Under the pieces are notes generated by a model, which saw nothing but the letters and a program-made list of their open reading frames with translations, was not told the origin of the DNA and ran no database searches. A program made the translations under genes and the position numbers. This document shows, in pieces, positions 6,847-59,914 of a DNA stretch of 64,000 nucleotides; positions within the stretch are counted from its first letter, which is position 1, and each line of letters opens with the position of its first letter. This DNA is from Candidatus Moanibacter sp. (GTDB lineage: Bacteria > Verrucomicrobiota > Verrucomicrobiia > Opitutales > UBA2987), in assembly GCA_965226025.1 (NCBI GenBank), contig CBDDCD010000001.1, positions 74,104 through 138,103 on the forward strand. Direction: 5' to 3'.

Positions 6847-8478
6847 TCATGTAGAGGATTTTCCTCTGGCATCCTCGAAACACCTGCGGAGAATGGTCGA
6901 GACTTGGCTGACATGAGGATCTCCGAGGAAATCGGCATGCGAGCCCGGGATGTCATAGACTTCAAGGCCGTTGGAAATGAACGGATCCCAGCCGTAAGAA
7001 GGATCGATAAACTCCATCCCGGCTTTGCGCATAGCAATCTGATCTATTGCGCGAAAGAGGACCGTTCGACCCTGGTAAGGCGCAAACTGGTAGCGCCGCT
7101 TTGCCTCCCCTCGGGTGATCGAGAGCGACGGGCACGAAGGCATCGGCGCTGTTGTTCTTAGTCGTTCGTCTTGATCTGTCACCTTTCGTCTCTGGCGTCG
7201 ATCCGCAATCCGGCGTTGGTAGTGCAGTACTCGCCGCCGAATTGCCTGAAAAATGTGCCGAAGGCCCGAATCGGTCATTCTTTTCATCAAGTGTATGCCC
7301 CTCCTGATATGGTGAATCTTCACTGCCGTGGCAAGGTAGGAGTCGAAGAGGACGAGAATAGCGACCTTTTCACCGCGACTCCTAAGCTGCTGCGCTATTT
7401 CGAAGGCGATCACGCCCGAGAATGAAAAACCGGCAAGATAGTACGGGCCATGTGGCTGAATCTCGAGGATCTGCTCTACGTAGCGCGAGGCGAGTACTTC
7501 AATCGGCGGAATCCCGGTGATCTTCACACCGGCGATGCTGTGATGCGGGAATTTCTGTTCCTGGGGCAGAACGATGGCATCGACTGGGATATCGGGCCCC
7601 AGCAATTCGGCCAGTCGCTGGTAATAAAAGACAAAGTAGATACAGATCAAGCTGGGACGTTCGCCGAGAGGCTGAAGGGTAACGATCGGCGATTCGGCTA
7701 CCTCGGTCTCATCGTTACGGAGGATCGCACCGAGCTGCGCGATCGTCGGATAGAGGAAGAGCGTAGTCGGATCGAGTTGCTCTCCGAATTTGCGTTCGAT
7801 TTCCGCAATCAGACGGATGCCCAACAGGGAGTGACCGCCAATTTCGAAGAAATTCTCATCGATACCGATACGCGATCGACCAAGCAGTTTCTCCCAGATA
7901 CCTGCCAGAGTCCTTTCCTCGGTGTTGCTCGGTTTGACGTAGACGCGGTCTTCTTTTTCGCTCTCTTTTTCCGGATCGGGAAGAGCCTTACGATCGATCT
8001 TTCCATTCGGGGTGAGAGGAAGTTCATCAAGGACGACAAAGATTGAGGGAATCATGTAGTCGGGAAGCTGAGTGGCGAGAAACCTGCGTAGATTCCCTCT
8101 TAACTGGGGTTGCCTGTTCGTGGGACAGACATAGGCCACAATGCGTAACTCCAATCCCGTCCGAGAAGAGGCGCTTCCCTTCACCTCAAACGGAAGAACG
8201 GCGCATTGTTGAACGGATCCATGGCTGGACAGCTGAGATTCAACCTCGTCGAGTTCGACCCGCATGCCGCGGACTTTTATCTGCCGATCTACCCGGCCGT
8301 ATATGGCGATGGTTCCATCCAGATCGTATCGTCCATAGTCTCCGGTAAGGTAAATGAGGTCATCGCTGTCCTCTGAACTTGGATTGTGTCTGAACTTTTC
8401 TTGCGTCAACACGGGATCTCGGAAGTAACCCTGACTTCGAAAAGGGGTACGGATGGCAATTTCACCCTTTTCGCCCAA
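6847..8478 (-). CDS. NRPS fragment: C-terminal part of A3 domain, T3 carrier domain, thioesterase
   Basis: Motifs 'YLTGDYGRY', 'GRVDRQIKVRGMRVELDEVE', 'FFEIGGHSLLG' and TE 'GFSFSG' are present. The ORF is the out-of-frame continuation of 8462..16501. Confidence 0.85.
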   Translation of the reverse strand: MGEKGEIAIRTPFRSQGYFRDPVLTQEKFRHNPSSEDSDDLIYLTGDYGRYDLDGTIAIYGRVDRQIKVRGMRVELDEVESQLSSHGSVQQCAVLPFEVKGSASSRTGLELRIVAYVCPTNRQPQLRGNLRRFLATQLPDYMIPSIFVVLDELPLTPNGKIDRKALPDPEKESEKEDRVYVKPSNTEERTLAGIWEKLLGRSRIGIDENFFEIGGHSLLGIRLIAEIERKFGEQLDPTTLFLYPTIAQLGAILRNDETEVAESPIVTLQPLGERPSLICIYFVFYYQRLAELLGPDIPVDAIVLPQEQKFPHHSIAGVKITGIPPIEVLASRYVEQILEIQPHGPYYLAGFSFSGVIAFEIAQQLRSRGEKVAILVLFDSYLATAVKIHHIRRGIHLMKRMTDSGLRHIFQAIRRRVLHYQRRIADRRQRRKVTDQDERLRTTAPMPSCPSLSITRGEAKRRYQFAPYQGRTVLFRAIDQIAMRKAGMEFIDPSYGWDPFISNGLEVYDIPGSHADFLGDPHVSQVSTILRRCFEDARGKSST

Positions 8479-16501: not shown

Positions 16502-17131
16502 CTTGAGGGACGGCGAAATACGCGGCCGGTCGGTGGGTAAGCTCGCTCGGGTAGATGCAACCGTACGTTGGGTTCGTGAGACCGAATCCTCCGCGGGATA
16601 AGATTCCCCCCCTGTCCTCGAGAAATTCTGCGTTTTTCATCTGGTCCCTAGAGAGACGATTGCAGTATGGATGTGCCCACGCGCAATCAGCAGGAGCAGA
16701 CGCCGGCGAATCGATATCGAGCTATATTCCTAGAGGATTAACCTTGATCTGTCGACTCGGGATTTTGCAGGAAATTCGGTTAGCTCAATCCCCGCGCGTC
16801 TGGCTACAGTGATCGACTCCGTGCAGCCCTACGCTTGAATGCAGAGCTTAGCGGAAGTTTGCGCTCCCATCCTGAGGATATTTTCGCCGGAAGAATCCCA
16901 GACATGGCGCAATGCGCGAGCACAAGTAGGATAGTAGTGTCCTTTAGTCCGACTGCCGCATCAGCTATTCCTCTCAGATTCCTCCCGAGTTTGCTGCAGG
17001 ACAATGCCCTTCGTTGCCTCTCCTTGCCACACCCCTAAAATCGATCAGACTCGTTTAAGGAGCTGATTTATAGATACTTGATTGAACAACAAAGACTTAC
17101 ATCAATAAACAGCCTAACGCAGGAGGGCGAT

Positions 17132-17154
17132 TTCGAATCCCGCCCTCTCCGCCA
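17132..17154 (+). other. tRNA-Ser-like 3' fragment (T-loop, acceptor and CCA), not a complete tRNA
   Basis: 'TTCGAATCCCGCCCTCTCCGCCA' is identical to the reverse complement of 27109-27131. No 5' acceptor 'GGAGAGG' lies upstream. Confidence 0.6.
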
Positions 17155-17881
17155 ATTCTCGCCGGAGGCGATAATTGAGCCCGCGCGAAGCGCGCGGAGA
17201 GGAAGGTATGAGCAATGTTTTCGAGTGCGCTGGCTTGACAGCGCTTTTCCCCAGCGAGGCTTGACTCGCCGATCTTGTCCACCCCTTTTCAATCCCAAGA
17301 ATCCAAACCTCATGCCGTCGAAAGGGCCGCGAACCTGGCTTCCTTTTGGTGGGTTCTTTCATGCAATAGAACGAGCGTACCGCAGCCGGAGCAATCAGAA
17401 GACGCGAAGCAACGATAATCAGCTGTTTAGCAAAATGCCTTTCTCGTCTGGCCTCCGCCAGTCTGTCCGCCCTCGTACTGGATGGGCCAGTACGAACCGA
17501 TTGCCGCAAGCGCAGCCGATTCAGGTAGCAATCGAAGCACCAAATTGAGAGGATGGTATGCCACTGACAAGACCCTACTTTTCGTTTCTACACTGTCAGA
17601 AACTCCACCTTCAAAAGACAGATCGCTAATCCGCAGCAACCACGCGAGGATGTTCAATTACCCCGAAGATGCCCCCTACTGCCATCTCCACTGGATCGCC
17701 GAAGCGGAAGGGAATCCTCTCCGGTCGCGTTGGGTCGAATGTTTGCGCGATCTCGAATGGATCAGGTAACGAGAGTTGCTCGAATTCCGAAGCGTGTGCG
17801 GTCACGGAAGGAGGTGGGAAAGAGGTCAGGCTTCCTATTTGGGGCTGGCCTGACGATGTTTATTTCCAAAGCCTGACCCGT

Positions 17882-18049
17882 TTACCCGCCTTTGCCTGAT
17901 TGGAGTCTATGAGTTAGGTGAAGTCCAATGTCCCTTGCCCCTCGATCATTCTCGTAATTTACGAATTCGCCAAATTGGCCCGCAAAGTGACGAAACTTCC
18001 CCATGTACTTCCTTTCAAAAGCATCGGTTTTGCCGACGATGATCATCAT
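17882..18049 (-). CDS. hypothetical 55-aa protein (weak call)
   Basis: An internal ATG of ORF 17882..18205 is preceded by 'GAGGAA'. It lies just downstream of the 374-aa cassette gene. No recognisable motif. Confidence 0.2.
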   Translation of the reverse strand: MMIIVGKTDAFERKYMGKFRHFAGQFGEFVNYENDRGARDIGLHLTHRLQSGKGG

Positions 18050-18158
18050 TGCTTCCTCGAGAGGTCCAACGTTGTAGGTGTGCGAGCGCGGAGTCAAACG
18101 CAGCAGAGCGAAGCGAACCAACGGCATTGCTCGCGCTTGGCACCACCGCCTTGTTGGC

Positions 18159-19283
18159 CTATTGTAGTGCTGCTTCAAGGCGAACAAGCGACTGCGACTC
18201 GCCAAACTGACTCTTCACCGATTTCTTCTTACCGGTGGCCCAGTGGATTGTGATCGAGCAGTCCCTCAAGCCCGATCGGTAGAGTGGTTCCAAAAGCCTC
18301 AATCCGTCAATCTGTTTAGACTGCAATTCGTTGTAACGCTTCAAGAACTCGGGTGAGGAAAATGTGCGAAGTTGTGTCGTGGGGAGGACTGAGGCCCGCG
18401 CACGATAAGTAAAGCGGCGACGCTCTCCGTTTTGAACTAGGCCGAACTCCTCGTCGTCTTCCTCTAGGATAAAAAGAACGGAGATGGAGTCGTTAGGTTT
18501 GGGCGAATCTGTCTTAACAGCCAGAGTGCCCACTGGATTAATGCTAGTTGGCTTCCCTCCAACATTTGAAACATCAATTGTCAGCGTAAAGGTAGGAACG
18601 GGCGAGGTAGGATCGACCCGGTCGATTACATCTGAAAGCGTTTGCAAGAACTCTTTTGTCTCAGTGACTACCTTGGTGTGGTGGGTGCCGACGAGCGCAA
18701 CAATATCCTTTGCGTTTGGTGGCGGAGGCCGATTTTGGTTAGCCCCCATCAACGCACCAATTATATTCATCGGATTGATTGGGCGTTGCAAATTCGTGCT
18801 CCGAAATTGTTGCGCCTTACGGCGATCTTGTACTGATACGCCTTTCAATCTGCTAGTATATTCGAGAACTGTATCAATATACTCACGGTTAGAAACGTAA
18901 AAGGCCGTATAATCAGTATTCGGTGCTATTTTCCACGCTGAATGGTTCTGGAGAGTTGGGTAGGCAATGTGGACGTTCTTAAGATCATCTCGTCTTTGGA
19001 GGATGTCTCCATAGGTAAGTTTGTTCGTATTGATCTTCTTCCGCCAATCATTGCCACCAATTTCTTTTGCGAGATTTGCCTGATCGGCGGGGGTGAGCGG
19101 CATGAGCCATTGGGACTTGAATGGTGTGGTCGATCTGATCTCCACCACATCGAACGACAGACGGGGACGATTAATCAGGTTCTTGATTGGCTCACCAACG
19201 AAGGCACCGAGTAAAACTCCAGCGAGCAGTAGTGTAACGTTTCCAAGTGGAGTATTGATGAAGCGTCTTTGATCGGAGGACAT
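18159..19283 (-). CDS. hypothetical single-pass membrane protein (374 aa), cassette cargo
   Basis: A long ORF with an N-terminal TM segment 'VTLLLAGVLLGAFVG'. I recognise no family. Confidence 0.6.
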   Translation of the reverse strand: MSSDQRRFINTPLGNVTLLLAGVLLGAFVGEPIKNLINRPRLSFDVVEIRSTTPFKSQWLMPLTPADQANLAKEIGGNDWRKKINTNKLTYGDILQRRDDLKNVHIAYPTLQNHSAWKIAPNTDYTAFYVSNREYIDTVLEYTSRLKGVSVQDRRKAQQFRSTNLQRPINPMNIIGALMGANQNRPPPPNAKDIVALVGTHHTKVVTETKEFLQTLSDVIDRVDPTSPVPTFTLTIDVSNVGGKPTSINPVGTLAVKTDSPKPNDSISVLFILEEDDEEFGLVQNGERRRFTYRARASVLPTTQLRTFSSPEFLKRYNELQSKQIDGLRLLEPLYRSGLRDCSITIHWATGKKKSVKSQFGESQSLVRLEAALQ

Positions 19284-19567
19284 CGTGTAGGGCTGTTTTC
19301 TAAGGCCAACTCTCTTATAGGCAGCGCTGACGCGTCTGCCGTTATGTCACGATAGCAATTTGGCCGCGTTGGGCAAGATTTCTCTCTAACCTCCTCTCAA
19401 CGAGTGGATTGCCTCACACCGGACGGCATGAACCGCGGATTTTTATTGATGCGTCAGCGCTGCCTATTCCGAAGCGTCGACGCTGCCTATCAAATTAATG
19501 AGATGCGCGGACGCATCATTTTATCACTTTGACCTCGCTGATTCTGATTCGCCTTCGGGCTGGCGAG

Positions 19568-19733
19568 TCAAAAGAGTTTGAGTTGGGGGTCTTGGGGGGA
19601 TGTCTTGCGGCGGCGATAGGGGCGGACTAGGCGGTTGGCTTCGGCGAGGAGGTCGACGGTTCTGTCGGTGGCTTCCGGATTTCGGCGGGAGGCGTCGAGA
19701 GCGAAAATGGCTCGCAATTAGGTTTGCGCTCTT
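19568..19733 (-). repeat. inter-cassette module copy R1 (micro-ORF copy with TTG start only)
   Basis: Hand translation gives 'RAIFALDASRRNPEATDRTVDLLAEANRLVRPYRRRKTSPQDPQLKLF*'. Confidence 0.7.
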
Positions 19734-19768
19734 TTGCAGAAGGTTTGGGAGGAGTTGGTTCAGGACTC

Positions 19769-19975
19769 TTAGAAGAGTTCGAGTTGGGGGACTTTGGGGG
19801 AGGGTTTGCGGCGGCGGCGGGGGCGGACGAGGCGGTTGGCGTCTGCTAGGATGTGGACGGTGAGGTCTTTCGCCTCTGGGGGAAGACGAGAGGGATCGAG
19901 GGCGAGTTCGATGGCGTTGCGGATGTGCTTGTGCGCATTGCAATTTGGTATAGGTTTGAGCTGATTAGGGCGCAA
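19769..19975 (-). CDS. module micro-ORF, most intact copy (R2, 68 aa)
   Basis: It has an ATG start. The sequence '...KHIRNAIELALDPSRLPPEAKDLTVHILADANRLVRPRRRRKPSPKVPQLELF*' is homologous to five other copies. Confidence 0.45.
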   Translation of the reverse strand: MRPNQLKPIPNCNAHKHIRNAIELALDPSRLPPEAKDLTVHILADANRLVRPRRRRKPSPKVPQLELF

Positions 19976-20130
19976 GAGGGCGGAAGTGTGCGAAGATCAA
20001 CGGGTTACGGAGTCAGGAAGAGGAAAAATCGAGTTTGGCCATTTTCAGGCGAAATCAGTCTGATTGCAAAGGGTTTGGCCGTAGGAATAGTCGAGTTTGC
20101 AATTAGGTTTGGCACCGAGAAGATCAGATG
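19976..20130 (-). promoter_or_regulatory. upstream half of module: repeated TTTGCAATTAGGTTTGG boxes and a conserved CAACGGGTTA block
   Basis: Boxes lie at 20062-20080 and 20093-20113, with a weaker one at 19940-19965. Confidence 0.4.
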
Positions 20131-20152
20131 CAGGGCTCCTGAATGTCCGCGC

Positions 20153-20692
20153 TCACGGGCCGGAAGTCCGCCGCTTCGCATCCTGCCGCCGGTCCGTGTG
20201 TGTTAAGGAGTGATCGCGCTGGCGAACTTCCTCAACGAGCCTTAGAGCTCTTAATTCGAAGGTCCTTAAGGATGCTAGAACCATCTCAGTCTGTACGATG
20301 CTAAGCGCTTCAACAACACCCATGTAGGTCTCAAGAAATTCCTTCTCCAGTTCCGAAAGCTCTCGAAAACCAAAGACTCTAAGGGCTGTCGATGCTCGCT
20401 TAGACACCGTCTCACGGTATCTATTGAGCTGTAATACTAATTTCTCCGAATCAAAATCTGTAAAATGCCTTTTCGACGTTTGCAGCCCAATTCGTTTCGC
20501 AAGCCATGGCAAGTATCCGTTTAACAACGCGATCGAAAAAGCTAGGAGAAGAGTCAGTACAAAGTACTCTGTTATTTTGATTCCCAGTATCGATACGTTT
20601 GTCAACGGAGGTAGCGTCCAAGCTATGGAGAGCACCAAAACCAACCAAGAAATGCAGTACATGACGACACGCGCCATGATGTGCCTCTGCAA
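20153..20692 (-). CDS. hypothetical membrane protein (2 TM N-terminus, helical C-terminus), cassette cargo
   Basis: TM segments are 'VVMYCISWLVLVLSIAW' and 'YFVLTLLLAFSIALL'. The ORF overlaps the upstream ORF by 55-70 nt. Confidence 0.5.
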   Translation of the reverse strand: MQRHIMARVVMYCISWLVLVLSIAWTLPPLTNVSILGIKITEYFVLTLLLAFSIALLNGYLPWLAKRIGLQTSKRHFTDFDSEKLVLQLNRYRETVSKRASTALRVFGFRELSELEKEFLETYMGVVEALSIVQTEMVLASLRTFELRALRLVEEVRQRDHSLTHTDRRQDAKRRTSGP

Positions 20693-20979
20693 AGTCTTGA
20701 TCGTGTAGTTGGCATGTGGCGTGATTTGCGTAGCTTATCTAGGATCGCTTTCACGTCATTGCGCGTCTCTCTTTTATCAATCGTAGTGACGTCGAGGAAA
20801 TACTCGTTCTCAACGACCTCCTTAACCTTCTTGTTGCTGCGAGAGAACTGAAACCCTGTTTGTCCAATTGAAAGAAATGCGGACAGACCCGAGAGAGCAG
20901 TGACTATTAACGTAAAGGTGGCGGGATCCACGTCCTGATCTTCTAATTTTCTTATAGGCAGCGCGAAAGCATCTGCCAT
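20623..20979 (-). CDS. hypothetical small membrane protein (118 aa), cassette cargo
   Basis: One TM segment, 'FTLIVTALSGLSAFLSIG'. The C-terminal ~30 aa look like read-through into the next gene. Confidence 0.4.
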   Translation of the reverse strand: MADAFALPIRKLEDQDVDPATFTLIVTALSGLSAFLSIGQTGFQFSRSNKKVKEVVENEYFLDVTTIDKRETRNDVKAILDKLRKSRHMPTTRSRLCRGTSWRVSSCTAFLGWFWCSP

Positions 20980-21054
20980 TTTGTGAGAATAACACTTCCG
21001 CCGCTTTCGGCAAGATCTCTGTATAACGTTCTCTTGACGAGTTGATTACACCAG

Positions 21055-21175
21055 ATTCTGGCTCGCAATCAGATTTGCGAACTTTCGCAGAAGGTTTGGA
21101 GGAAGCTGGTTCAGGATTCTCAGAAGAGATTAAGTTGGGGGTCGTAGGCGAAGGTTCTGTCGCTCGCAACGAGAT
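21055..21175 (-). repeat. truncated module copy (duplicate of the R2/R1 junction plus an internally deleted repeat)
   Basis: 21055-21130 parallels 19711-19790 ('GCTCGCAAT.AG.TTTGCG...GCAGAAGGTTTGG.AGGAG.TGGTTCAGGA.TCT.AGAAGAG'). Confidence 0.6.
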
Positions 21176-21246
21176 TTGGACATTTTCGCAGAGGGTTTGA
21201 GCTTTCCTGCGGATCTCGTAACTCGCGCAGACAGAAATCCGGGATG

Positions 21247-21415
21247 CTAAAAGAGCTCGAGTTGGGGGTCTTTCGGGGATTATTTGCGCCGGCGGTGGGG
21301 GCGGACGAGGCGGTTGGCTTCGGCTAGGATGTAGGCGGTTTGATCGGTGGCTTTGGGGGACAGTTTGGATGGATCGAAGGCGAGGTCGATGGCATTGCGG
21401 ATGGCTGGTCTGCGA
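21247..21415 (-). repeat. inter-cassette module copy R3 (micro-ORF with an in-frame TAA)
   Basis: 'AIRNAIDLAFDPSKLSPKATDQTAYILAEANRLVRPHRRRK*SPKDPQLELF*'. The internal stop is at 21280-21282. Confidence 0.7.
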
Positions 21416-21553
21416 CCAGGCTGGGCCGCTGTAATTGATGCGGGGACGACAGTGAAAGCAACTCAGTAACCGGATAGAATCAGCGTTTCGGGAACTGATG
21501 TTGTCGATAGAAGCAAATCAACGGCAGTATTCCACTTCCGGAGCATCCAACGG

Positions 21554-22075
21554 TTACTCCGCGCCGGCCGACCACCACAAGAGTTTTCTGATGAAATAGT
21601 AATTACCAACGCTAAGAAGACCAAAGCCCAAGAGGAAAGAAAAGGTCGTTAAGTAGCCAATCGGCACCCAAATAAGCCTATCAGTGAAACTTTGTTCACC
21701 ATCCTTAGTACTGAATGTTTTGGGTGGTAGAGCGGTGTTGTAGCTAATCCGGACGTTTCGAAGTCTCAAATATTCGGTATGAAGCAACCACGTTACCGCA
21801 ACACAGAGAGTAAGAGCCACACCTAGTATAAACTCGCCGACATCCTTTAACGGGGCGAAATCGTTAACTTTGAAGTGCGGGGCGACATTCAGCGTGATAA
21901 TCGAAAACCCAAGCCGATACGAACTGCGCCAGTAGTGAGTTTGTCTAAGCTGATATTCGTCAAAAATTAGCCGCGCCAGGTCAGGATCGTAATCTCGGGC
22001 TTCAGGAGACATCAAATTACCTACCACTGCGGCCGTTTGAAGGGAACTCAGCGAAATACAGGCATTCGTCGCCAC
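21554..22075 (-). CDS. hypothetical multi-TM protein (173 aa), cassette cargo
   Basis: The ORF has three or more hydrophobic segments, for example 'FILGVALTLCVAVTWLL' and 'LTTFSFLLGFGLLSVG'. Confidence 0.55.
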   Translation of the reverse strand: MATNACISLSSLQTAAVVGNLMSPEARDYDPDLARLIFDEYQLRQTHYWRSSYRLGFSIITLNVAPHFKVNDFAPLKDVGEFILGVALTLCVAVTWLLHTEYLRLRNVRISYNTALPPKTFSTKDGEQSFTDRLIWVPIGYLTTFSFLLGFGLLSVGNYYFIRKLLWWSAGAE

Positions 22076-22224
22076 CTGATGGAGCTTGGGTAGAATTGAG
22101 CGTCATAACTACAGTGAGATTGCTTATGCGCAATCGATGATCCTAAGAGGTAACACGGTCGGCATTCTGCGTCAAGAAACTGATCTCTGTATTTTATGCG
22201 TAGGCGATTGCCTACACCGGAGGC

Positions 22225-22395
22225 TCAAAAGAGTTCGAGTTGGGGGTCTTTGGGGGAGGTTTTGCGGCGGCCGTGGGGGCGGACGAGGCGGTTGGCTTCG
22301 GCGAGGATGTAGACGGTTTGATCGGTGGCCTCCTTGATTCGGCGGGAGTCGTCGAGGGCGAGATCGATGGCGTAGAATCTCGCACTTAGGTTTGG
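22225..22395 (-). repeat. inter-cassette module copy R4 (micro-ORF without canonical start)
   Basis: '...YAIDLALDDSRRIKEATDQTVYILAEANRLVRPHGRRKTSPKDPQLELF*'. The frame opens after a TAA with no ATG, GTG or TTG. Confidence 0.7.
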
Positions 22396-22560
22396 GCATT
22401 GGCGAATCAGCGCGATTTAGGGCGGAAGTACACGGATATCAACGACTTAGGTATCAGTCAAAAGTGAAATACGAGTTTGCGCACTTCTTGGGTCAGATCG
22501 GGGTGTTTGCAATTGGTTTGAGCACTGAGAAATGCGAGTTTGCAGTTAGGTTTGGGTACT
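22396..22560 (-). promoter_or_regulatory. upstream half of module with box repeats
   Basis: Boxes lie at 22503-22523 and 22536-22556. The block 'GGATATCAACGACTTAGG' is also present. Confidence 0.4.
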
Positions 22561-22685
22561 CAACAAGACAGAGGTGACCGGGTTGGCGGACCAACGGAGT
22601 TGACGCTGACGCACAGATAATCGTAAACGAAGGAAACGACATTGAAAGACGGAAAAGCGAGTCAACCCCTGTTCACCGTTTTGTT

Positions 22686-24146
22686 TCAGGAAAGGTGCGT
22701 TGTCGGAGGTGATTCTCTTGCAGAGTTGTCGGTTGCAAGTGCTTTGACCACCCTTTCGAGCTCGCGATCGAATAGGTCGCCGTTGTCTTTCCAACCATTG
22801 AAATCTGCTGCGAGGCGGGATGTTACTTGCATTGCCTTACCACTCTTCCATTGGCCGGAAAGCAAGAATCCGTCGAGGTCAAGGGGAATGAGTGCTAGCA
22901 CTTTTCTGCCGCGTTCTTTCATGAGTTTCTGTTCCTTCTTAAACGCGGCATCGATCTCATTATCAACCCACCAACTGGTCAGAGAATATTCTGATGCACA
23001 CAGAAGGATCTTGTCCCACAGCCGAATCCCGCGATCCACTTGGTCGTAAATGTCATCACCGGGTAACATTTGTTTTTCGTCTAGCCAGCACCGAATGCCG
23101 CGGCCCTGTAGCGCATCATGTAGCCGCCGTGCGAACGACTTGTCTTCATGGCTGTAACTAATGAAGCACGAATAGAACTCTAGAGCGTGGCCTGTTAACG
23201 AAGGGAGGTATGTGATGAGATTGTCCGTGATCCCGCAGCCGCGAAGAAAGTGATCAGGGATCTTACCTCTAGAACGAGTCAGTGTATCAACATCAATACT
23301 ACTCGGTCCAGAATGCACGATCGTGTCCAACCCTTTGACGGTCGAGAGGTCGATTCCACTTAATCTCACCTTCTCGAATTGAGCCTTGTCGAGTTGCACA
23401 TCGGTCATCACAGTGTTCTCAAGTTGTGCATGGGACAGGTTCGCGTTCGTTAGGTCTGCGCCCGACAGATCAGCGCCGATGCAAATACATGACAAATCCG
23501 CCCAAATGACATGCTGCGAGAGGTTTGCACATTCAAGGTCCGCATCAGTGAGGTTGGCGTTGCGAAGTTTAGCGCCAGATAACATGCTCCACCCCAAATC
23601 GGTATCGGTTAGCTCCGCCTCGGTGAAATCAACGAGCTGTAAGAAAGCACCCCTCAAATTCGCACCGCGTAGATTCGCCTCTCGAAATGACGCCCATTTC
23701 AGAATCGCCCCTGCAATGTTGCAGTAACTCAAGCTCGCCTTGGTGAGGTCCGTTCCGATAATGTTCCTCCTTCCTTCGGAATTCAGGATTTCATCCGCAT
23801 CTAGGTTAACCGTTCTTAGGTCGCATTGACTAAGATCCGCGCCACACATTATTGCCCCGCGCAGATCGAGGCCACGCAGGTCAATGTCGGTGAGGTCGGC
23901 TCCTGTCAAATCAAGACGAACATGTGAATCCTCGACACGCCGGGCTGCATTTTCGGTACGCCATTTCGTAACGGCTCCACAACCTCTCCGTAAGAGCGTG
24001 ACGTGCTCGGGATTTGCCATTGGTGTTGGCAGCTTCGTTCGCTGCGTTCGGCTGAATGTTGTGCGTATTTCAAGACACAACTCAAGATAGATTGCGTTTA
24101 CGCGATGGCTGTCTTGGAAAACAGCACTATCGCGAGCCACGGTCAA
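22686..24146 (-). CDS. pentapeptide-repeat protein fused to a C-terminal TIR domain (486 aa)
   Basis: There is a long run of A(D/N)LxG-type pentapeptides. The TIR-like region is 'FISYSHEDKSFARRLHDALQGRGIRCWLDEKQMLPGD...SWWVDNEI'. Confidence 0.8.
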   Translation of the reverse strand: MTVARDSAVFQDSHRVNAIYLELCLEIRTTFSRTQRTKLPTPMANPEHVTLLRRGCGAVTKWRTENAARRVEDSHVRLDLTGADLTDIDLRGLDLRGAIMCGADLSQCDLRTVNLDADEILNSEGRRNIIGTDLTKASLSYCNIAGAILKWASFREANLRGANLRGAFLQLVDFTEAELTDTDLGWSMLSGAKLRNANLTDADLECANLSQHVIWADLSCICIGADLSGADLTNANLSHAQLENTVMTDVQLDKAQFEKVRLSGIDLSTVKGLDTIVHSGPSSIDVDTLTRSRGKIPDHFLRGCGITDNLITYLPSLTGHALEFYSCFISYSHEDKSFARRLHDALQGRGIRCWLDEKQMLPGDDIYDQVDRGIRLWDKILLCASEYSLTSWWVDNEIDAAFKKEQKLMKERGRKVLALIPLDLDGFLLSGQWKSGKAMQVTSRLAADFNGWKDNGDLFDRELERVVKALATDNSARESPPTTHLS

Positions 24147-24189
24147 GAAGCCTCGCTATCTGATTCAAATACAAGGGATTGTGTAACTA

Positions 24190-24250
24190 GCATTCAGGTT
24201 TGCAAACTTTCGCAGAAGCGGAATTTGCAATTAGGTTTGGGCATTCAGTT
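24190..24250 (-). promoter_or_regulatory. partial module (box repeats only) between the DUF4062 and TIR genes
   Basis: 'AATTTGCAATTAGGTTTGGGC' at 24222-24242 and 'CAGGTTTGCAAAC' at 24196-24212. Confidence 0.4.
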
Positions 24251-24423
24251 GGGGAAAAGGGCCAGGATCGGTATGAATGGATTGTGAGAGTGATTGATCT
24301 CTGCATTTCTGGGATTGACGTTAGGATTGGGATGGTAGTGGATGAAGCTAGATACTTTCGCTTGGAGGAACTACTCCGTTTGCGGTAGAATCGCTTCAGA
24401 AGATATACTCGAAGTCTAACAGC

Positions 24424-25326
24424 TCACCAGGTTGATCCCTGTGGGTTGGAATCTCCCAAGGCCGCGGTCTTAACTTTCTCGGATTCAAGCTTGTTAAAGA
24501 AGATACGGCCCGCATCCGAGATAGTGTATTGAGAAGGACCTGTCCTGCTGAGCAGGCCGAGCCTGTAAAGCTGATCAGTTTCAGATCGGGCAAAACGGCC
24601 AGAACCTCTGTCGAAAAGTTGATCTCGATTTTCTTCCATCCATTCGAGCAGACCTTTATCGATCACGATATCCCTTAGTTCAGCGAAAGTGAGCCCATTA
24701 AGTAGCGTGTCTTGCCTACCACTTTCAACCTGGCTTCGTAGCAGGGAGTTCTCGCGACTCAGCCGGGTGATCTCATCGGTTACTGCAGGCATGTTCACCT
24801 GTGTCGAGGATCGTACCCAGCCTTCGAGATCTTCGCGACGAGAGAATTCACCGAGGGTCTGATGTATCGACAGCTGGATATCCTTCTCATCGTTCCAAAA
24901 TCCCACTGTCTTTTTTTGAACCAGATCTCGAAACTCTGCGAGTTTATCAGCTTCTTCGGTCTCCCTGGCTTCGGGTCCCAGACGGCGAACTTTCTCATCA
25001 AGCGCTGGCTGCTCGATCACACAGGAAAACAGAGCCAATCCTTTTTCCAAAGCGTATTTATACTCCACTTCTATGTAGCTTCTGCCTGTTTTCGGGTCGA
25101 TACTACCGTATCGACCTGCCAGGATCAGGAGGAACACGTCTGATTGGTTGATCCACTGCTTTATGACCTCCATCTGCGACTCATCGCCAGCTGCAAAAAG
25201 CTCCATACCAGCGGGAATGTGTCCAGCCGACAAGATTGCCTCGACTCCCGCCTGCCTTTCCACTTTTAGATCGGTGTACGTTGAGGAGACAAATACCTGC
25301 AGGCGTTTTTTAAGGAAGTCGACCAT
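24424..25326 (-). CDS. DUF4062 (TIR-like) domain protein with a helical/wHTH-like C-terminus (300 aa)
   Basis: The N-terminus 'VFVSSTYTDLKVERQAGVEAILSAGHIPAGMELF' matches the DUF4062 signature. Confidence 0.7.
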   Translation of the reverse strand: MVDFLKKRLQVFVSSTYTDLKVERQAGVEAILSAGHIPAGMELFAAGDESQMEVIKQWINQSDVFLLILAGRYGSIDPKTGRSYIEVEYKYALEKGLALFSCVIEQPALDEKVRRLGPEARETEEADKLAEFRDLVQKKTVGFWNDEKDIQLSIHQTLGEFSRREDLEGWVRSSTQVNMPAVTDEITRLSRENSLLRSQVESGRQDTLLNGLTFAELRDIVIDKGLLEWMEENRDQLFDRGSGRFARSETDQLYRLGLLSRTGPSQYTISDAGRIFFNKLESEKVKTAALGDSNPQGSTW

Positions 25327-25405
25327 AGGACGATTGTCGGAATTTCCCCCTTCCTTTCAAGGGAGTCAATCTACTTAGAGATCGTCGCGAATGAGCTTTG
25401 ATTCT

Positions 25406-25575
25406 TCAGCTGCCGAAAAGTTCCAGCTGCGAGATTTGTGTCATCTTGCGGCGGCGGGGGGGGGGCGGACGAGGCGGTTGGCTTCGGCGAGGATGTAGAC
25501 GGTTTGATCCGTGGCTTCCTTGATTCGGCGAGATGCGTCGAGAGCGAGGTCGATGGCGTTGCGGATGTGCTTCAT
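25406..25575 (-). pseudogene. inter-cassette module copy R5: micro-ORF with ATG, out of frame at a C10/G10 tract
   Basis: 'MKHIRNAIDLALDASRRIKEATDQTVYILAEANRLVRPPP' runs into the homopolymer. The conserved tail 'RRRKMTQISQLELFGS*' is in the +1 frame. Confidence 0.5.
25456..25465. repeat. G10 (C10 on coding strand) homopolymer inside micro-ORF copy R5
   Basis: Counted directly: 'gcggcggcGGGGGGGGGGcggac'. Confidence 0.9.
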
Positions 25576-25745
25576 GAGCCTTGCAAAGAAGCTTGAGCAT
25601 TCGCGAATTAGGACGGAATAGAGCGGAAGTCAGCGAATAGCAACGGGTTAGGGGACTCATGGGGTGAGAGATCGAGTTTGAGCACTTTGGGGCTATATTT
25701 TAGGGGGTTTGCACATGGTTTGAGCACTTTTCGAGTTATTGCAAG
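25576..25745 (-). promoter_or_regulatory. upstream half of module with box repeats
   Basis: 'GGTTTGCACATGGTTTGAGC' at 25706-25725, 'CGAGTTTGAGC' and 'AGCAACGGGTTAGG'. Confidence 0.4.
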
Positions 25746-25774
25746 GAGTCCGATAGACAGTTTCTGGACGATTG

Positions 25775-26200
25775 CTAACCAACCGGTTGGTTATCTTTCG
25801 CTCTAGGAGTTTCAGAACGAGGTGGGGCGGCGGCCGCACTGTCTTCAGCCTCTTGTACGTCAATTCTCTGCCGGATTGCTCTCACCACCTCAGCGATCGG
25901 TGTGCGCGTCCGCCACCAGGAGATTAAGAGATATACGCCCATCAGATTCCCAACCACGGAGACGACTATACACAAATTCTCAGCGATCTGACTCCGAAAG
26001 GTTGCCGTACACAGGGCCAATATACTTGAGAACGCCATTGTCAGCAGAAAGACCGCGAAATTCAGCTGGATTGATGCGGGGGACCCTTTCTCAAGCAGGT
26101 CCAGTTCGTTTTCCTTGACTTCAAAAAGGTCGACGGATGCGACTCGACCTCGTCGCACTTGGAGAGGCTTGCTATCCGTTGGGTGTGAGGGAGAACTCAT
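25775..26200 (-). CDS. hypothetical 2-TM protein (141 aa), cassette cargo
   Basis: TM segments are 'FAVFLLTMAFSSILALC' and 'LCIVVSVVGNLMGVYLLISWW'. Its start lies 1 nt after the stop of the upstream ORF. Confidence 0.55.
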   Translation of the reverse strand: MSSPSHPTDSKPLQVRRGRVASVDLFEVKENELDLLEKGSPASIQLNFAVFLLTMAFSSILALCTATFRSQIAENLCIVVSVVGNLMGVYLLISWWRTRTPIAEVVRAIRQRIDVQEAEDSAAAAPPRSETPRAKDNQPVG

Positions 26201-26201
26201 C

Positions 26202-26471
26202 CTATAGATTCTCCCTCAGCCACTTGTCGTATGCCTCGCCGAAGCTATTGAACCAAGCTGCTTCAGTACCAGATCTGACCACGAAGACGCGTTCTCCTTG
26301 GTCAAGGACATTCTGGATTTTGTCCCTAATCTCGACGGCCCTCTGTTCTGTGTTAATCGCCCAACAGTGGTCGTGTATGGGACAATAGTAACGATAGGAT
26401 TTCAGAAATTCCTGCACCTTATCATTGGATGCCTCAGAGTTCGTCTGAAATGTAACGATGTAGCAGGTCAT
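26202..26471 (-). CDS. hypothetical small soluble protein (89 aa), cassette cargo, translationally coupled to the 2-TM gene
   Basis: A compact ORF with alternating beta/alpha-like sequence. I recognise no family. Confidence 0.5.
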   Translation of the reverse strand: MTCYIVTFQTNSEASNDKVQEFLKSYRYYCPIHDHCWAINTEQRAVEIRDKIQNVLDQGERVFVVRSGTEAAWFNSFGEAYDKWLRENL

Positions 26472-26745
26472 CGCGATTCCTTTCCTATAGCTGTCAACAT
26501 GGAAATCTCGTCATTTGGAGAGGGTTGGTCGAGCAGGTCTTCGATGCTCTTCAGGCATAGAAGTGGCTTTCTTGCAGCATTTCAAGGGTCTTTGAGGAGT
26601 TTCTATGGTAAAGAGCCTGAGAGTCCAAATGAGATCCTCAGCATCGACTTTCCTGCACACTTTCTTGTCCTTTTACGCGTAGCTTTGTCGTCGCACTTCA
26701 AAGATGGGCAGTCGCGAGCGAATCCGTCGGGCGAGGAAAGTGAGC

Positions 26746-26830
26746 TTAGAATAGCTCGAGTTGGAGGTCTTTGGGGATTGTTTGCGGGGGCGGTGGGGTC
26801 GGATGAGGCGGTTGGCTTCGGCTAGGAGTT
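26746..26830 (-). repeat. truncated and frameshifted module copy R6 (3' ~85 bp only)
   Basis: 'LAEANRLIRPHRPRK', then a frame change, then 'QTIPKDLQLELF*'. Confidence 0.6.
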
Positions 26831-27108
26831 ACACGGTCGAGTCTAACGCTCATCGAATGGAAAATTTGGAACTTGGGTATTTGTGGGACCACTGAAGCTC
26901 GGAAAATTTGGGACAGAGGGCGCGTTTCCCATGTTTCTTTTTCTACGCTTTCTCCAATATCAGGAGAATCTAAGAGCTCCTTTCCGTCATCCTCAATACT
27001 CCGCGCCATCGGCGATTCTCGTCACATTTATTCTTACCGCCATTCTGAAACGGTCTACCTGCCGATCATAAAAGTATGTAAACATTTGAATAGAAATGTC
27101 TGACAAAA

Positions 27109-27136
27109 TGGCGGAGAGGGCGGGATTCGAACCCGC
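27109..27136 (-). other. tRNA-Ser-like 3' fragment (complete T-arm, acceptor, CCA), not a complete tRNA
   Basis: The reverse complement is 'GCGGGTTCGAATCCCGCCCTCTCCGCCA'. No matching 5' acceptor or foldable anticodon arm lies in the next 100 nt. Confidence 0.6.
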
Positions 27137-27440
27137 GGAACTCACTCAGCGGAGTCATGAGGATTGCGAGCTCCCAGCAGAGCGCTATAGCCGATTAGCA
27201 GGGATGAAGGTGTGCTCGAGCTAATCTGATCAATGCGTTCCAGGATTTTGGTAACGAATGTTTCCTACCCGGGAAGGCGACTTACTTCCTCTTGAGAGTC
27301 CAGATTCTGTTAGACGGAAATCCTGCCGCCTCCCGATTTCTGGCCGGCCCAAGTGGCCTCGAGCCCAACCTTCTCGCAACGTTCGCGAGCGTTCCCCTTA
27401 ATGGGAGAATCCTGAATAGGAAGAAAAGAGTTTGAGATCG

Positions 27441-28445
27441 ATGTCACCAGGGAAGCGAATAAACGGGAAGCCAGTCTATACAGTCCGTGCGAAATCGATA
27501 ATCAACTTTAACAGCGGATTCAGGCACAAGCTACTGTGTGATGGCCTGACCTTCAGCACCGGGACGGCCTGTGCCTTCAAATGCGCGTATTGCTATGTTG
27601 GGCCGATGATGGCTCGGAATCCTCAGACTAATCTCCTCAGAGATCAGGGACTTGCGCACAGCGAAGTGGTGATCCGAAGAAAAAATCCTTTAACGATTCT
27701 CGGACAGCAGCTCTTGGATTCGAAAGGCCGAGCCAAGTTCCTGGAAGACCCGAATGACCGGAGAGTGATTTACGCCAGTCCTCTTGTTGATGTAGCAGCG
27801 AATATGGAGCTGGTACAGGAAACGATCGTAGCCTGTCGAATTATCCTGGATCTGACCCATTGGCAGATTCGCCTCCTTTCGAAATCCAGTCTGCTTCTGA
27901 AAGTGGCAGAAGGACTACAAGATGCTGACAGAAAAAGGGTCATTTATGGATTCTCTACCGGCAGCACCGACGATGGTTTGGCGCGCTCATTTGAGGAAGG
28001 AACGCCGTTGGTCAGCAAGAGGCTGAAGGCTCTACGCACCTTGCAGGATGAAGGATTCCGAACATACGGGATGATCTGCCCGAGTCTGCCTCAGAAGGAC
28101 TATCGAGCTTTCGCTGCTGATATCGCGAGAGCCATACGGTATGAGAAATGCGAGCACGTCTGGGCTGAAGTCATCAACGTCCGTGGCCAATCCATGGTCC
28201 GAACTTGCAGCGCTTTATCCCGGGGAGGGTATCCAGAGGAGGCGGAGATGTTGAGATCGGTAAGTACGGACCGGAGACTCTGGGAAGAATACGCGCGAAA
28301 CACATTCCTCGCCCATACCGATTTTATCCCTCCAGAGAAATTATGGTTTCTGCAGTACGTGGCTGAACGAAACCTCAGCTGGTGGCGAGACCAAGTATCG
28401 AAAGGCGCTGTGTTGCTTGGGAAAGCAGGACAGCAGACGAAATGA
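27441..28445 (+). CDS. radical SAM protein (SplB/DNA-photolyase-like family)
   Basis: The CX3CX2C motif is 'CAFKCAYCYV'. The size is ~335 aa. A TTG at 27432 is an alternative start. Confidence 0.55.
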   Translation: MSPGKRINGKPVYTVRAKSIINFNSGFRHKLLCDGLTFSTGTACAFKCAYCYVGPMMARNPQTNLLRDQGLAHSEVVIRRKNPLTILGQQLLDSKGRAKFLEDPNDRRVIYASPLVDVAANMELVQETIVACRIILDLTHWQIRLLSKSSLLLKVAEGLQDADRKRVIYGFSTGSTDDGLARSFEEGTPLVSKRLKALRTLQDEGFRTYGMICPSLPQKDYRAFAADIARAIRYEKCEHVWAEVINVRGQSMVRTCSALSRGGYPEEAEMLRSVSTDRRLWEEYARNTFLAHTDFIPPEKLWFLQYVAERNLSWWRDQVSKGAVLLGKAGQQTK

Positions 28446-28855
28446 TGATCGATTCCGTAGCAGAAGAATCCTCTTCCTACTGCGAAGGGAAACCAGAACC
28501 AGAACAGTCGCCCGAAAGGTTCGGAAAAATCTCTGATGGTGAACGACGATCATTGGCCGAAGTTCTCTCGATTCTTTCCGGGCAACTGGCAGTACTGAAT
28601 AGCAGTCTCTCTCGGGTTCTGGAGTATCTGCCGGAGATATCCTCTCCTCCGATCCTGGTTAACGGTAAGATGACGCAGCTCGTCACAAGGGATGAACTCG
28701 CGGTGATCCTGGGAGTTCGACCGAATACCGTCGATCGCTGGGCGAAGAATGGTACTATTCCTGAGCCGCTCAATCCCGAGAAGGGAAGGCGCGGGCGGAA
28801 GTTCCTGCGCTACGATCTTTTCACCGTAATCGATTGGATTCAGAGATACCGGTAG
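28443..28855 (+). CDS. excisionase/MerR-like HTH DNA-binding protein
   Basis: The C-terminus 'VTRDELAVILGVRPNTVDRWAKNGTIPEP' is an HTH_17/Xis-type motif. The ATG overlaps the stop of the radical SAM gene. Confidence 0.55.
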
Positions 28856-29174: not shown

Positions 29175-29251
29175 TGGTCGGGCTGGAGAGATTCGAACTC
29201 TCGACCCCTTGCACCCCATGCAAGTGCGCTTCCAGGCTGCGCCACAGCCCG
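29175..29251 (-). tRNA. tRNA-Pro (anticodon GGG), 77 nt with encoded CCA
   Basis: The reverse complement folds by hand. Acceptor CGGGCTG/CAGCCCG, D stem GCGC/GCGC, anticodon stem CTTGC/GCAAG with loop ATGGGGT, T stem GAGAG/CTCTC with loop TTCGAAT. Confidence 0.9.
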
Positions 29252-59840: not shown

Positions 59841-59914
59841 CTCCAGATCCAGCGATTTAGGCGGTTCGAGTATGGCCTTGCGCATACGTTTCGAACAGGA
59901 CATAACGAGATTAA

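Follow-up and report, generated by a model that had tools for sequence, protein, structure and literature searches.

A tRNA-adjacent array of unrelated cargo genes divided by a composite junction, possibly a fossil stack of mobile-element ends

One-directional arrays of unrelated small cassettes with one repeated separator are characteristic of sedentary chromosomal integrons and CALIN, and in CALIN, as at the locus described here, no integrase lies beside the array. The separators of this locus differ from attC sites in length (200-560 nt versus 57-141 nt), have no R''/R' cores, hairpin or dyad symmetry, and contain a gene remnant; moreover, the cassettes have their own leaders, the array adjoins a tRNA fragment, and no intI was found in the 64 kb of DNA analysed (the window). 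In one-ended capture of the ISCR/IS91 and ISEcp1 types a constant end just past the 3′ end of the element's gene is followed by variable captured DNA, and different genes can stand in arrays, each preceded by the same end, as here. The gene whose remnants occur in our array (gene X) differs in having no HUH/Y2 or IS1380 transposase signature, X being known here from its last 145 codons at most. In the defence hotspots at phage-satellite and prophage ends and in the recombinase-associated immunity arrays of Bacteroidales, a single conserved slot, bounded by a backbone gene and the end of the element, holds a varied set of immune-type genes, with conserved intergenic repeats, as here. At our locus, by contrast, backbone and recombinase are missing and several slots are stacked head to tail.

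The tycheposons of Prochlorococcus are tRNA-adjacent islands in which newer elements push older ones inward, and remnants and fragmented backbone genes lie among the cargo (bioRxiv 10.1101/2020.12.28.424599). The present locus shares with them the position next to a tRNA and the degenerate remnants between accessory or defence-type genes. In tycheposons, however, partial tRNAs form the inter-unit repeats and fragments of integrases can be recognised, whereas here the separators are box arrays with X remnants, the tRNAs are of three kinds, and an integrase could not be detected. Tn7-like transposons, including the CRISPR-associated ones, have several direct ~20-bp repeats at two mutually inverted ends, TG...CA termini and defence-type cargo, and insert a short distance (a few tens of bp) past a conserved gene (PMC8649781, PMC10293859, PMC11014353); some Tn7 proteins also carry a clamp-binding motif (PMC3971601). 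Our ends are compatible with TG...CA, and at one sister locus (L010) two ends are mutually inverted and one lies 26 nt past tRNA-His. In contrast to Tn7-like elements, there is no tnsA, tnsB, tnsC or tniQ here, no 5-bp duplication was found, and the ends in the window all point one way.

The array occupies a ~10-kb island between two inverted tRNA-Ser-like fragments. It consists of six low-GC genes or gene pairs with no relation to one another, which all lie on the minus strand and are separated by copies of a single repeated junction, in which a multi-box end resembling that of a mobile element (RE) is combined with a remnant of gene X. Read along the minus strand, its features are:

27106-27198, minus: tRNA-Ser(GCU)-like 3′ portion, an incomplete tRNA; the array begins downstream
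26746-26851, minus: first X remnant, a ~32-codon stub (...DLQLELF*) that has a frame defect inside it; preceded by degenerate box-like sequence
25775-26471, minus: cargo 1, an 89-aa ORF (phage family phrog_1090, function unknown) and a 141-aa ORF having two hydrophobic segments
25573-25758, minus: RE copy with boxes, a CCGTTG...ACTTCCGC block and a terminal box; end ...TTGCAAGGCTCA
25404-25572, minus: X remnant from KHIRNAI, frameshifted at a C-run; called gene P0002
24424-25326, minus: cargo 2, a DUF4062 protein of 300 aa
24187-24241, minus: short terminal box pair without X remnant; end ...CAAACCTGAATGCTAGTTACACAA
24079-24159, minus: leader P2, upstream of the TIR gene, homologous to two pieces flanking an IS insertion in sister locus L006
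22686-24146, minus: cargo 3, a pentapeptide-repeat and TIR protein, called as 444-484 aa in other assemblies
22379-22577, minus: RE copy with four boxes; end CAAACCTAAGTGCGAG
22225-22371, minus: X remnant, 48 codons from AIDLALD, without start codon
21554-22075, minus: cargo 4, a 173-aa protein with two hydrophobic segments
21247-21423, minus: degenerate 3′ half of RE, then a 51-codon X remnant with an internal stop
21062-21202, minus: short box pair, 12-codon X stub (DPQLNLF*), second short box pair
20153-20979, minus: cargo 5, a membrane protein, 118 + 179 aa in the window through a frameshift, intact (275 aa) in assembly L008
19937-20133, minus: RE copy
19769-19930, minus: X remnant, 53 codons; open as a 68-aa ORF only if TTG is taken as the start
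19711-19750, minus: short box pair 20 nt past an X stop; end ...CAAACCTAATTGCGAG
19568-19702, minus: X remnant, 45 codons, joined directly to the preceding box
19284-19567, minus: leader P1, containing ATAGGCAGCGCTGACGC palindromes; leader plus X tail match L010 at 94% identity, with another gene following there
18159-19283, minus: cargo 6, a 374-aa protein with no family match; a small ORF (17882-18205) follows
17127-17157, plus: inverted copy of the tRNA-Ser 3′ end, two mismatches in a 25-nt core; far boundary of the region

The two inverted 31-nt fragments (17127-17157 and 27106-27136) are 90% complementary. The right-hand one is the last 31 nt of the tRNA-Ser(GCU)-like 3′ portion, which extends over ~90 nt; neither ARAGORN nor Rfam detected a full tRNA at 27106-27198. 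At all three loci a tRNA or tRNA fragment lies just upstream of the repeat: the Ser fragment in the window, Asn in L006, where a T-arm copy of tRNA-Asn (17/18 nt) abuts X, and His in L010. The GC3 of the cargo (0.51-0.59) lies below that of the three flanking genes measured (0.59 for the NRPS gene, 0.66-0.67 for two genes on the other flank), indicating foreign composition. Because independent assemblies (L007, L008/L012 and L009) carry the same array at 99.7-100% identity, it is no assembly artefact.

The initial annotation had described a unidirectional array framed by inverted tRNA-like fragments, and both features were confirmed. Of the two origins it had considered, accretion at a tRNA att site came closer to the evidence, with the tRNA neighbourhood and the lower cargo GC3 in its favour, but the separators are not tRNA repeats; the resemblance to integrons or CALIN held for the architecture and failed for cores, hairpin, conserved RNA structure and intI. 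On its question whether strains differ by whole cassettes, no presence/absence variant was found among the available assemblies of the array.

A complete RE is ~200 bp long and has four ~20-bp direct boxes and a fixed terminus at its end. A repeat search, run alongside an nhmmer model built from three copies, recovered the annotated modules, all on the minus strand: full copies at 25758-25404, 22577-22216 and 20133-19763 (nhmmer, E ~1e-103 to 1e-110), partial copies at 21423-21237, 19750-19559 and 26864-26738, and a stub at 21156-21115. No further copy occurs elsewhere in the 64 kb. Box CCAAACCTAATTGCAAAC had four matches (0.04 expected) and box CAAAYCTNANTGCGAG eight (1.0 expected), every one of them between 19.7 and 24.3 kb on the minus strand. 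Constraint on the boxes is evident: in 10-column windows of alignment A3 the second and third boxes reached 0.73-0.85 and the outer boxes 0.45-0.70, as against 0.23-0.53 for the spacers. Homology ends no more than ~10 nt past the last box, with CA at each end, and the flanking sequence beyond varies by copy. The boxes behave like mobile-element termini and may be bound by an enzyme. As had been proposed, the repeat is not attC: no RYYYAAC/GTTRRRY pair occurs inside the modules (the array has two, both outside the repeat, one within the TIR gene and one across the stop of the 173-aa cargo gene), the modules showed no hairpin propensity (z = +1.0 and -0.56), and no conserved RNA structure was found in the box region. 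The region is not an integron.

The module had been taken for a single unit containing a micro-ORF. The repeat is real, but it is a junction of two separable parts, an element-like terminus that adjoins the remnant of a gene. L010 has an RE with no X (12344-12530, with unrelated DNA after it), both L006 and L010 have X without an RE, and box pairs are also present after the X stop codon, which lies 20-50 nt upstream of the pair in three copies. The box pair 26 nt past tRNA-His in L010 is situated at the near end of a ~4-kb island and is inverted relative to the RE 4 kb away; no target-site duplication was identifiable at the ends of this island.

The micro-ORF turned out to be what is left of a longer gene, its truncated 3′ end. 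In a profile search the last 51 residues of P0003 (165 aa) matched the micro-ORF profile, and P0001 also shares X residues upstream of the micro-ORF region. Nine copies of the X tail were found, 5′-truncated to 145, 62, 53, 53, 51, 48, 45, 32 and 12 codons; the seven in the window have 12-53 codons, and in another locus of this species X runs to 145 codons or more. In five of the nine (45-53 codons) the starts are no more than 8 codons apart. An open frame with its start codon survives in three copies (TTG for 68 aa and for 49 aa, ATG for P0001), whereas five of the nine cannot yield a peptide ending in the C-terminal QLxLF motif owing to a missing start, frameshift, internal stop or truncation. 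Pairwise differences by codon position were 0.195, 0.154 and 0.301. QLxLF is under constraint: all changes in its Q, L, L and F codons are synonymous across the nine copies, with variation at the x residue and in the stop codon. Given this coding-type constraint, the copies diverged as working genes, and local duplication of a dead fragment was rejected as their source.

The QLxLF terminus, preceded by a flexible, basic and proline-containing tail, looks like a putative beta-clamp-binding tail. Motifs of the QLSLF type, situated at flexible C-termini, are beta-clamp binders known from Tn7 and from the transposases of numerous IS families (PMC3971601; PMC4549789). X may thus have been a mobile-element protein. 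It had no detectable homology to transposases or recombinases, and its predicted structure (pLDDT 48.6) was too poor for use. No homologue of X or of the boxes was present in the collections searched, the family being confined to one species, nor was any copy that had a full-length X or an enzyme gene.

Pfam scans of 40 ORFs of the window (most of those with 150 aa or more that lie outside the NRPS gene, and smaller ones in or beside the array) revealed no integrase, serine recombinase or resolvase, in agreement with the initial annotation, and no recombinase was found in the 64-kb window or the sister loci. The closest transposase genes are those of insertion sequences, at 2464-3150 and 4066-6009; two more lie beyond 56.9 kb.

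The cargo genes had been called mutually dissimilar, and no related pair was found among their products (best BLASTP E-value 0.095). Their supposed immune or abortive-infection character stood for the TIR domain only, neither the DUF4062 protein nor the membrane proteins having a PADLOC match. The 141-, 173- and 275-aa proteins, each with one or two hydrophobic segments, and the 374-aa protein had no family match. A globin-like and a DUF1059-like gene are among the cargo of a sister locus. X tail and leader P1 together form a 374-nt segment that is 94% identical in the window and L010 and precedes different genes in the two, a recent patch common to both loci. Leader P2 points to exchange as well, being shared with L006.

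We tentatively interpret the island, with a probability of about 0.45, as a fossil stack of cargo-bearing distal ends left by diverged members of one orphan, undescribed family of mobile elements that sit downstream of tRNAs. In the ancestral element X would have been the last backbone gene, reading outward to a terminus of repeated ~20-bp boxes, the putative binding sites of the element's transposase or recombinase. Cargo-bearing members would have carried a leader with its own promoter and one or two accessory genes between the X stop and the four-box RE. Successive elements may have inserted in or beside the resident X end, or recombined there, in an order that we can only infer. Each event would leave an X 3′ remnant, leader, cargo and RE, the next unit opening once more with X in truncated form. 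The left halves would have been lost together with the enzyme gene, or the enzyme may be supplied in trans. The family is deduced from its ends only, because neither full-length X nor an enzyme gene was found; and since all termini in the window run in the same direction and no left end is present, the fossil-stack reading needs extra deletions.

The clustered X starts could mean that one ancestral RE-X junction was propagated as a unit, by a circular cassette or homologous recombination, and not by independent insertions. They are what the closed junction of a circle would produce, and so agree with an active platform of integron-like design, in which the ~360-bp RE-X module is the recombination site of a recombinase encoded elsewhere, and circles of X remnant, leader, cargo and RE excise and re-insert at a resident module. 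The one-directional array of unrelated cargo, the constrained boxes and the recurrence of one leader before different genes in different loci fit such a platform, as do the first copy after the tRNA fragment, which has no RE, and the far-end RE of L010, which has no X, an attL- and attR-like pair. We nevertheless consider it unlikely: no recombinase accompanies window or sister loci, the modules have neither dyad symmetry nor hairpin nor attC-like cores, RE identity among their copies is only ~70%, with many copies truncated or rearranged, the available assemblies do not differ in cassettes, and the family is limited to one species.

The 94% identical, conversion-like patch, the three start-bearing open frames, the purifying selection on QLxLF and direct-repeat half-sites (TGCNCAAAC / TGCAAAC) more conserved than their spacers would also suit a cis-regulatory unit duplicated with the island genes. 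The boxes would then be operators of a transcription factor and the micro-ORF a clamp-binding or regulatory peptide, homologous recombination shuffling the downstream genes with no dedicated mobility. This seems quite unlikely, as most of the copies cannot make the peptide, P0003 identifies the ORF as the end of a longer gene, and the boxes lie past the stop of the upstream gene, a long way from the start of the gene downstream, every cargo gene having a leader of its own. A sigma-70 consensus scan was unenriched (6 sites, 8.4 expected), and the inverted boxes past tRNA-His in L010 are left unexplained. Some plasmid initiators, such as TrfA of RK2, carry QLSLF motifs, and X could accordingly be read as the remnant of a replication initiator, with the boxes as iterons of plasmid-like episomes that integrated and collapsed. 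The clamp-binding-like tail and the ~20-bp direct repeats on both sides of the X remnant accord with this, but the irregular box spacing (~33-90 nt), the fixed boundary past the last box, the inverted near-end boxes of L010 and the lack of any match of P0003 to Rep families, plasmids or phages make it very improbable.

The anatomy of the island, its composite module and its location downstream of a tRNA or tRNA fragment are direct observations. Under the fossil-stack interpretation each cassette's own leader probably drives its expression, and the repeated junctions would provide portable homology for gene conversion between islands.

The array of mutually dissimilar cargo genes separated by one repeated module, as described in the initial annotation, is real. 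Six genes or gene pairs lie between 17.1 and 27.1 kb, all on the minus strand; their proteins are mutually unrelated, and the two inverted 31-nt tRNA-like fragments reported there are genuine as well. Independent assemblies (L007, L008/L012 and L009) have identical gene calls at the locus, at 99.7-100% identity, and all assemblies of the window locus that we compared carry the same array. An nhmmer model of the module recovered three full copies, three partial copies and one stub, and no further copies elsewhere in the 64 kb. The box motifs occur on a single strand only, far in excess of chance expectation. The full module copies and the cargo products are as follows:

25758-25404, minus strand: full module copy
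22577-22216, minus strand: full module copy
20133-19763, minus strand: full module copy
Pentapeptide and TIR protein (cargo 3): domain matches
DUF4062 protein (cargo 2): domain match
89-aa protein: matches a phage family of unknown function
141-, 173- and 275-aa proteins: one or two hydrophobic segments each
374-aa protein (cargo 6): no match to any family

The GC3 of the cargo genes (0.51-0.59) was compared with that of the flanking NRPS gene (0.59) and of two genes on the other flank (0.66-0.67). PADLOC models matched the TIR domain of one protein only (ThsB-like and other models, E-values down to 1.8e-13); the remaining nine scanned ORFs gave no match and partner genes for the TIR protein were not found. 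With the TIR domain of a single protein matched, the cargo was rejected as a complete known anti-phage defence system. The membrane-protein gene (cargo 5) is one 275-aa ORF in L008, and is split by a frameshift (20623-20692) into 118 and 179 aa in the window; either the gene has become a pseudogene here or the sequence contains an error. Transposases in the window are confined to IS genes, at least 8 kb from the array. The surroundings contain the following features:

2464-3150 and 4066-6009: IS genes, farther out than the NRPS and thioesterase genes
6847-16501, minus strand: giant NRPS gene (2679 aa) and a thioesterase-containing 543-aa gene, directly past the far tRNA fragment
27441-28855, plus strand: overlapping pair formed by a gene for a radical-SAM protein, which weakly resembles the Rv2578c family and 'radical SAM mobile pair protein B', and the HTH_17 ORF listed next
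28382-28855: ORF with an HTH_17 excisionase-like domain, overlapping the radical-SAM gene, outside the array
29175-29251, minus strand: tRNA-Pro(GGG), on which the radical-SAM/HTH_17 pair converges
46348-47154, plus strand: PaaX-like regulator with a central Cas2-like domain, apparently unrelated to the array
56930-58721 and 61195-62986: inverted 1792-bp IS copies, 100% identical, each with a 492-aa DDE transposase
59094-61090: PEMT-like methyltransferase and amidohydrolase genes between these IS copies, with the look of a composite transposon

The radical-SAM/HTH_17 pair may be a separate small island.

The module consists of a box-bearing terminus (RE) and a micro-ORF, whose consensus translation is KHIRNAIDLALDASRRIKEATDQTVYILAEANRLVRPHRRRKTSPKDPQLELF*. 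The micro-ORF is a defunct 3' remnant of what was once a longer gene, X. The X remnant at 22371-22225 has no start codon, that at 21402-21247 is interrupted by a stop codon, that at 25572-25404 is frameshifted, and two others are stubs of 32 and 12 codons; several copies of the X tail are not expressible in the consensus frame. Only two relatives, P0001 (65 aa, from a second locus) and P0002, the window's own copy, came up when 5.8 billion protein clusters were searched by word index. Running the full HMMER profile against 1.84 billion representatives brought in P0003 (165 aa), whose C-terminal 51 residues fit the micro-ORF profile. P0001 and P0003 share residues just upstream of the micro-ORF (SHHG.DL...LKHIRN), and X therefore had about 145 codons or more. 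P0003 lacks homologues as well as Pfam, PHROG and NCBIfam matches; used as queries, it and its antisense ORF retrieve only themselves, and its predicted structure is unreliable (pLDDT 48.6). Plasmid and phage collections gave no match to P0003. P0004, in which SILYEANRL is repeated, and P0005 were considered as further relatives; both appear to be chance or low-complexity matches.

Pairwise differences between X copies at the three codon positions are 0.195, 0.154 and 0.301. The motif QL(E/K/N)LF is present in all nine copies and forms the extreme C-terminus in eight of them; the frameshifted copy has two further codons past it. The final codons are the most informative: among the nine copies the Q, L, L and F codons vary synonymously only (CAA/CAG; CTC/CTG/CTT; CTC/CTA/CTT; TTT/TTC), the middle residue changes between E, K and N, and all three stop codons are seen. 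From the codon-position pattern and the synonymous-only variation in the motif we infer that X diverged as a working gene and that the remnants derive from distinct, once-functional alleles of a mobile-element protein and not from duplication of a pseudogene in place. PMC3971601 and PMC4549789 describe Q-L-S-L-F/L at a flexible C-terminus as the beta-sliding-clamp-binding motif, and report it as functional in peptides derived from the transposases of Tn7 and of numerous IS families. By motif, with the QL[SD]LF-type pentapeptide consensus taken from PMC3971601, the tail of X looks clamp-binding-like.

The RE is about 200 bp long, lies upstream of the X remnant, and carries four direct boxes of about 20 bp (GTGCTCAAACC-N3-4-TGCAAAC type) together with a CCGTTGAT...ACTTCCGCCCT block. 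In 10-column windows of the four-copy RE alignment the second and third boxes scored 0.73-0.85, the outer boxes 0.45-0.70 and the spacers 0.23-0.53. A short two-box form, CCAAACCTTCTGCGAAA-N5-CAAAYCTNATTGCGAG, is found 20-50 nt after the X stop in three places and stands alone at 24187-24241. In every case homology ends at most about 10 nt past the last box, and the flanking sequence is then specific to the copy: X remnants cut at various points, the cargo 5 leader P1' or the TIR-gene leader P2. RNAalifold found no conserved RNA structure in the four RE copies, and promoter and terminator consensus scans showed no enrichment. The boxes were also considered as IS ends; the IS elements at these loci have ends unlike them. 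Between the boxes of the stand-alone pair (24203-24229), L007 (6926-6936, 3x coverage) is about 38 nt shorter, which could be box slippage or an assembly error. Leader P1, which precedes cargo 6, contains three copies of the palindromic motif ATAGGCAGCGCTGACGC(ATC) (19317-19336, 19448-19467 and about 19475-19495), and a fourth lies at the start of cargo 5 (20954-20973); the motif is conserved in L010 (10585-10750) and is a candidate operator.

Parts of the repeat also occur at two sister loci, L006 and L010, which belong to the same species as the window because the IS of L006 is 100% identical to that of the window. At all three loci the repeat is downstream of a tRNA gene or tRNA portion. 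Comparison of the sister loci gave these features:

Window 27106-27198: tRNA-Ser-like 3' portion
L006 2540-2608: degenerate tRNA-Asn-like pseudo-copy, directly upstream of the intact gene
L006 2610-2684: tRNA-Asn
L006 2925-2943: 17/18-nt T-arm copy, 240 nt downstream of tRNA-Asn and joined directly to X (62 codons)
L006, about 200 nt past X: leader P2 homologue, interrupted by an inserted IS
L010 8412-8486: tRNA-His
L010, 26 nt after tRNA-His: two-box form, in opposite orientation relative to X
L010 9757: second two-box copy
L010, in this order: X (145 codons), leader P1, globin-like gene, DUF1059-like gene
L010 12344-12530: full RE, followed by unrelated DNA

L010 thus has oppositely oriented boxes at both ends of an island of about 4 kb just downstream of tRNA-His, and its RE shows that an RE can occur without X. 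The ends in the window all have one orientation. The X tail and leader P1 of L010 are 94% identical over 374 nt to those of the window (19679-19306), and a different gene then follows at each locus. Other copies are 70-90% identical, and the patch is therefore a recent exchange. A minus-strand gene has also left its 3' end twice in L010 (9549-9625 and 9919-9995, diverged, 79%): one copy adjoins an inverted box pair and the other borders X at its 5' break. Here too a truncated gene remains at the junctions. A second, unrelated intergenic repeat of about 290 nt (11289-11568 and 11900-12188, 90% identical) follows the globin-like and DUF1059-like genes, carries a hairpin and a TTGACA-type promoter-like stretch, and is absent from the window. 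The tRNA-Asn pseudo-copy and the T-arm copy of L006 are signs of repeated recombination there. Assemblies of this tRNA-Asn locus from different samples (L001-L006) differ by IS insertions and inversions involving the 492-aa IS, a 448-aa DDE IS and, in L001, an rve+IstB IS21-like element; the 1792-bp IS takes varying positions and orientations, and the leader P2 homologue is interrupted by a 741-aa transposase-like gene (weak Transposase_29 match).

The right tRNA-like arm of the window is part of an incomplete tRNA, some 90 nt that resemble the 3' portion of tRNA-Ser(GCU). Rfam (gathering and E-value thresholds) detected only tRNA-Pro (29178-29251) and, in antisense, an echo of this tRNA-Ser-like fragment. 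The possibility that a block of the module is a decayed tRNA-Ser end was rejected (p = 0.03 in one copy, > 0.5 in four). The repeat family is an orphan: it was found in one species only, known from ENA long-read metagenome assemblies, and no match came from DNA and peptide pattern scans, which covered viral contigs and JGI metagenomes as well as species-representative genomes. Searches for strain variation with the DUF4062 protein, the radical-SAM protein, a 95-aa ORF, P0002 and the protein P0006 returned the same arrangement only.

An attC site spans 57-141 bp, is an imperfect inverted repeat with RYYYAAC...GTTRRRY cores, and folds as a hairpin. A complete integron has an intI tyrosine recombinase with attI and Pc adjoining the array; a CALIN needs none. 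Pattern scanning detected no attC core pairs within any module; the only two pairs fall beyond the repeat, the first within the TIR gene and the second spanning the stop codon of cargo 4 (173 aa). Single-strand DNA folding of a module gave z = +1.0 and -0.56 for the two strands, and no inverted repeats of at least 20 nt are present inside the modules. Pfam scans of 40 window ORFs yielded no Phage_integrase-type match and no integrase, serine recombinase or resolvase, in agreement with the initial annotation, and no integrase is among the genes called in L001-L013. With no attC cores, no structure (core-pair scan, ssDNA folding, RNAalifold) and no intI, integron and CALIN were rejected; the array is not built like an integron, as had been suspected.

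Islands that integrate into tRNA genes lie at the 3' end of the gene, are bounded by direct tRNA repeats and carry an integrase gene, whole or in fragments. The window shares the position at a 3' tRNA portion but has no integrase, and its only two tRNA fragments are mutually inverted; units bounded by direct repeats of a tRNA 3' segment were not found. Tn7-like elements encode tnsB/tnsC (and tnsA) with tniQ/tnsD, have ends with direct binding repeats that are inverted between the two ends, and make a 5-bp target duplication. The two-box and four-box ends of L010, 4 kb apart, are inverted relative to each other, and no convincing target-site duplication is recognisable at them; tnsB/tnsC/tnsA or tniQ/tnsD domains were not found in the window or the sister loci. 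One-ended capture by IS91/ISCR or IS1380 involves an HUH Y2 or an IS1380 DDE transposase adjoining the constant end; it was rejected, P0003 (165 aa, X remnant only) having no Pfam, PHROG or NCBIfam match.

The best-supported reading is that mobile-element ends piled up beside a tRNA fragment and that the array is their fossil. The module would be a junction between the terminus of one unit and the truncated 3' end of X of the next, giving cassettes in the order X remnant, leader, cargo, RE. Each cassette would represent the distal end of a cargo-carrying element whose last backbone gene, X, reads towards the multi-site terminus. Stacking of such ends, by nested insertion into a resident X end or by recombination there, would produce the right-hand series; the left halves would then have to have been lost. 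The repeated junctions could serve as substrates for exchange between islands, as in the 374-nt patch common to two loci. As to the type of element, a DDE transposon of Tn7, Mu or IS21 style would fit the TG...CA-compatible ends, the subterminal repeats, the position 26 nt after a tRNA and the clamp-binding-like tail; arm-type sites of a tyrosine integrase would also fit the tRNA neighbourhood and the T-arm copy of L006.

Alternatively, an active and so far undescribed cassette-capture system could use the RE-X module for recombination and do in this under-sampled bacterial lineage what integrons do elsewhere; in it, a trans-encoded enzyme (possibly full-length X or a partner) would add promoter-bearing cassettes one after another at a multi-box site downstream of tRNA genes, with neither attC-like structure nor an adjacent integrase. 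This would account for the start points of five X remnants, which fall within 8 codons of one another as those of a closed circle junction should, and for the absence of an RE from the copy closest to the tRNA-Ser fragment and of X from the far-end RE of L010; the missing recombinase and site symmetry, the heavy decay and the fact that no cassette polymorphism was seen nevertheless make this reading unlikely. A purely regulatory role, the boxes being operators accompanied by a small peptide, is at odds with P0003, with the disrupted ORFs and with the opposite orientation of the boxes 26 nt past tRNA-His in L010, and an iteron/Rep interpretation of the boxes lacks any Rep similarity.

If the stack of element ends is the right reading, the array would be a variant of the tRNA-adjacent island, and the elements would form an undescribed cargo-carrying family downstream of tRNAs in a poorly sampled lineage, known from its ends only. 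Stacked element ends could then look like an integron and yield accessory and immune genes that have their own promoters and all point one way. If the cassette-capture reading is right instead, the array would represent a second, structurally unrelated solution to cassette capture. Under either reading the clamp-binding-like tail of X would provide a testable link between the element and the replisome, and the box repeats a handle for finding the enzyme.
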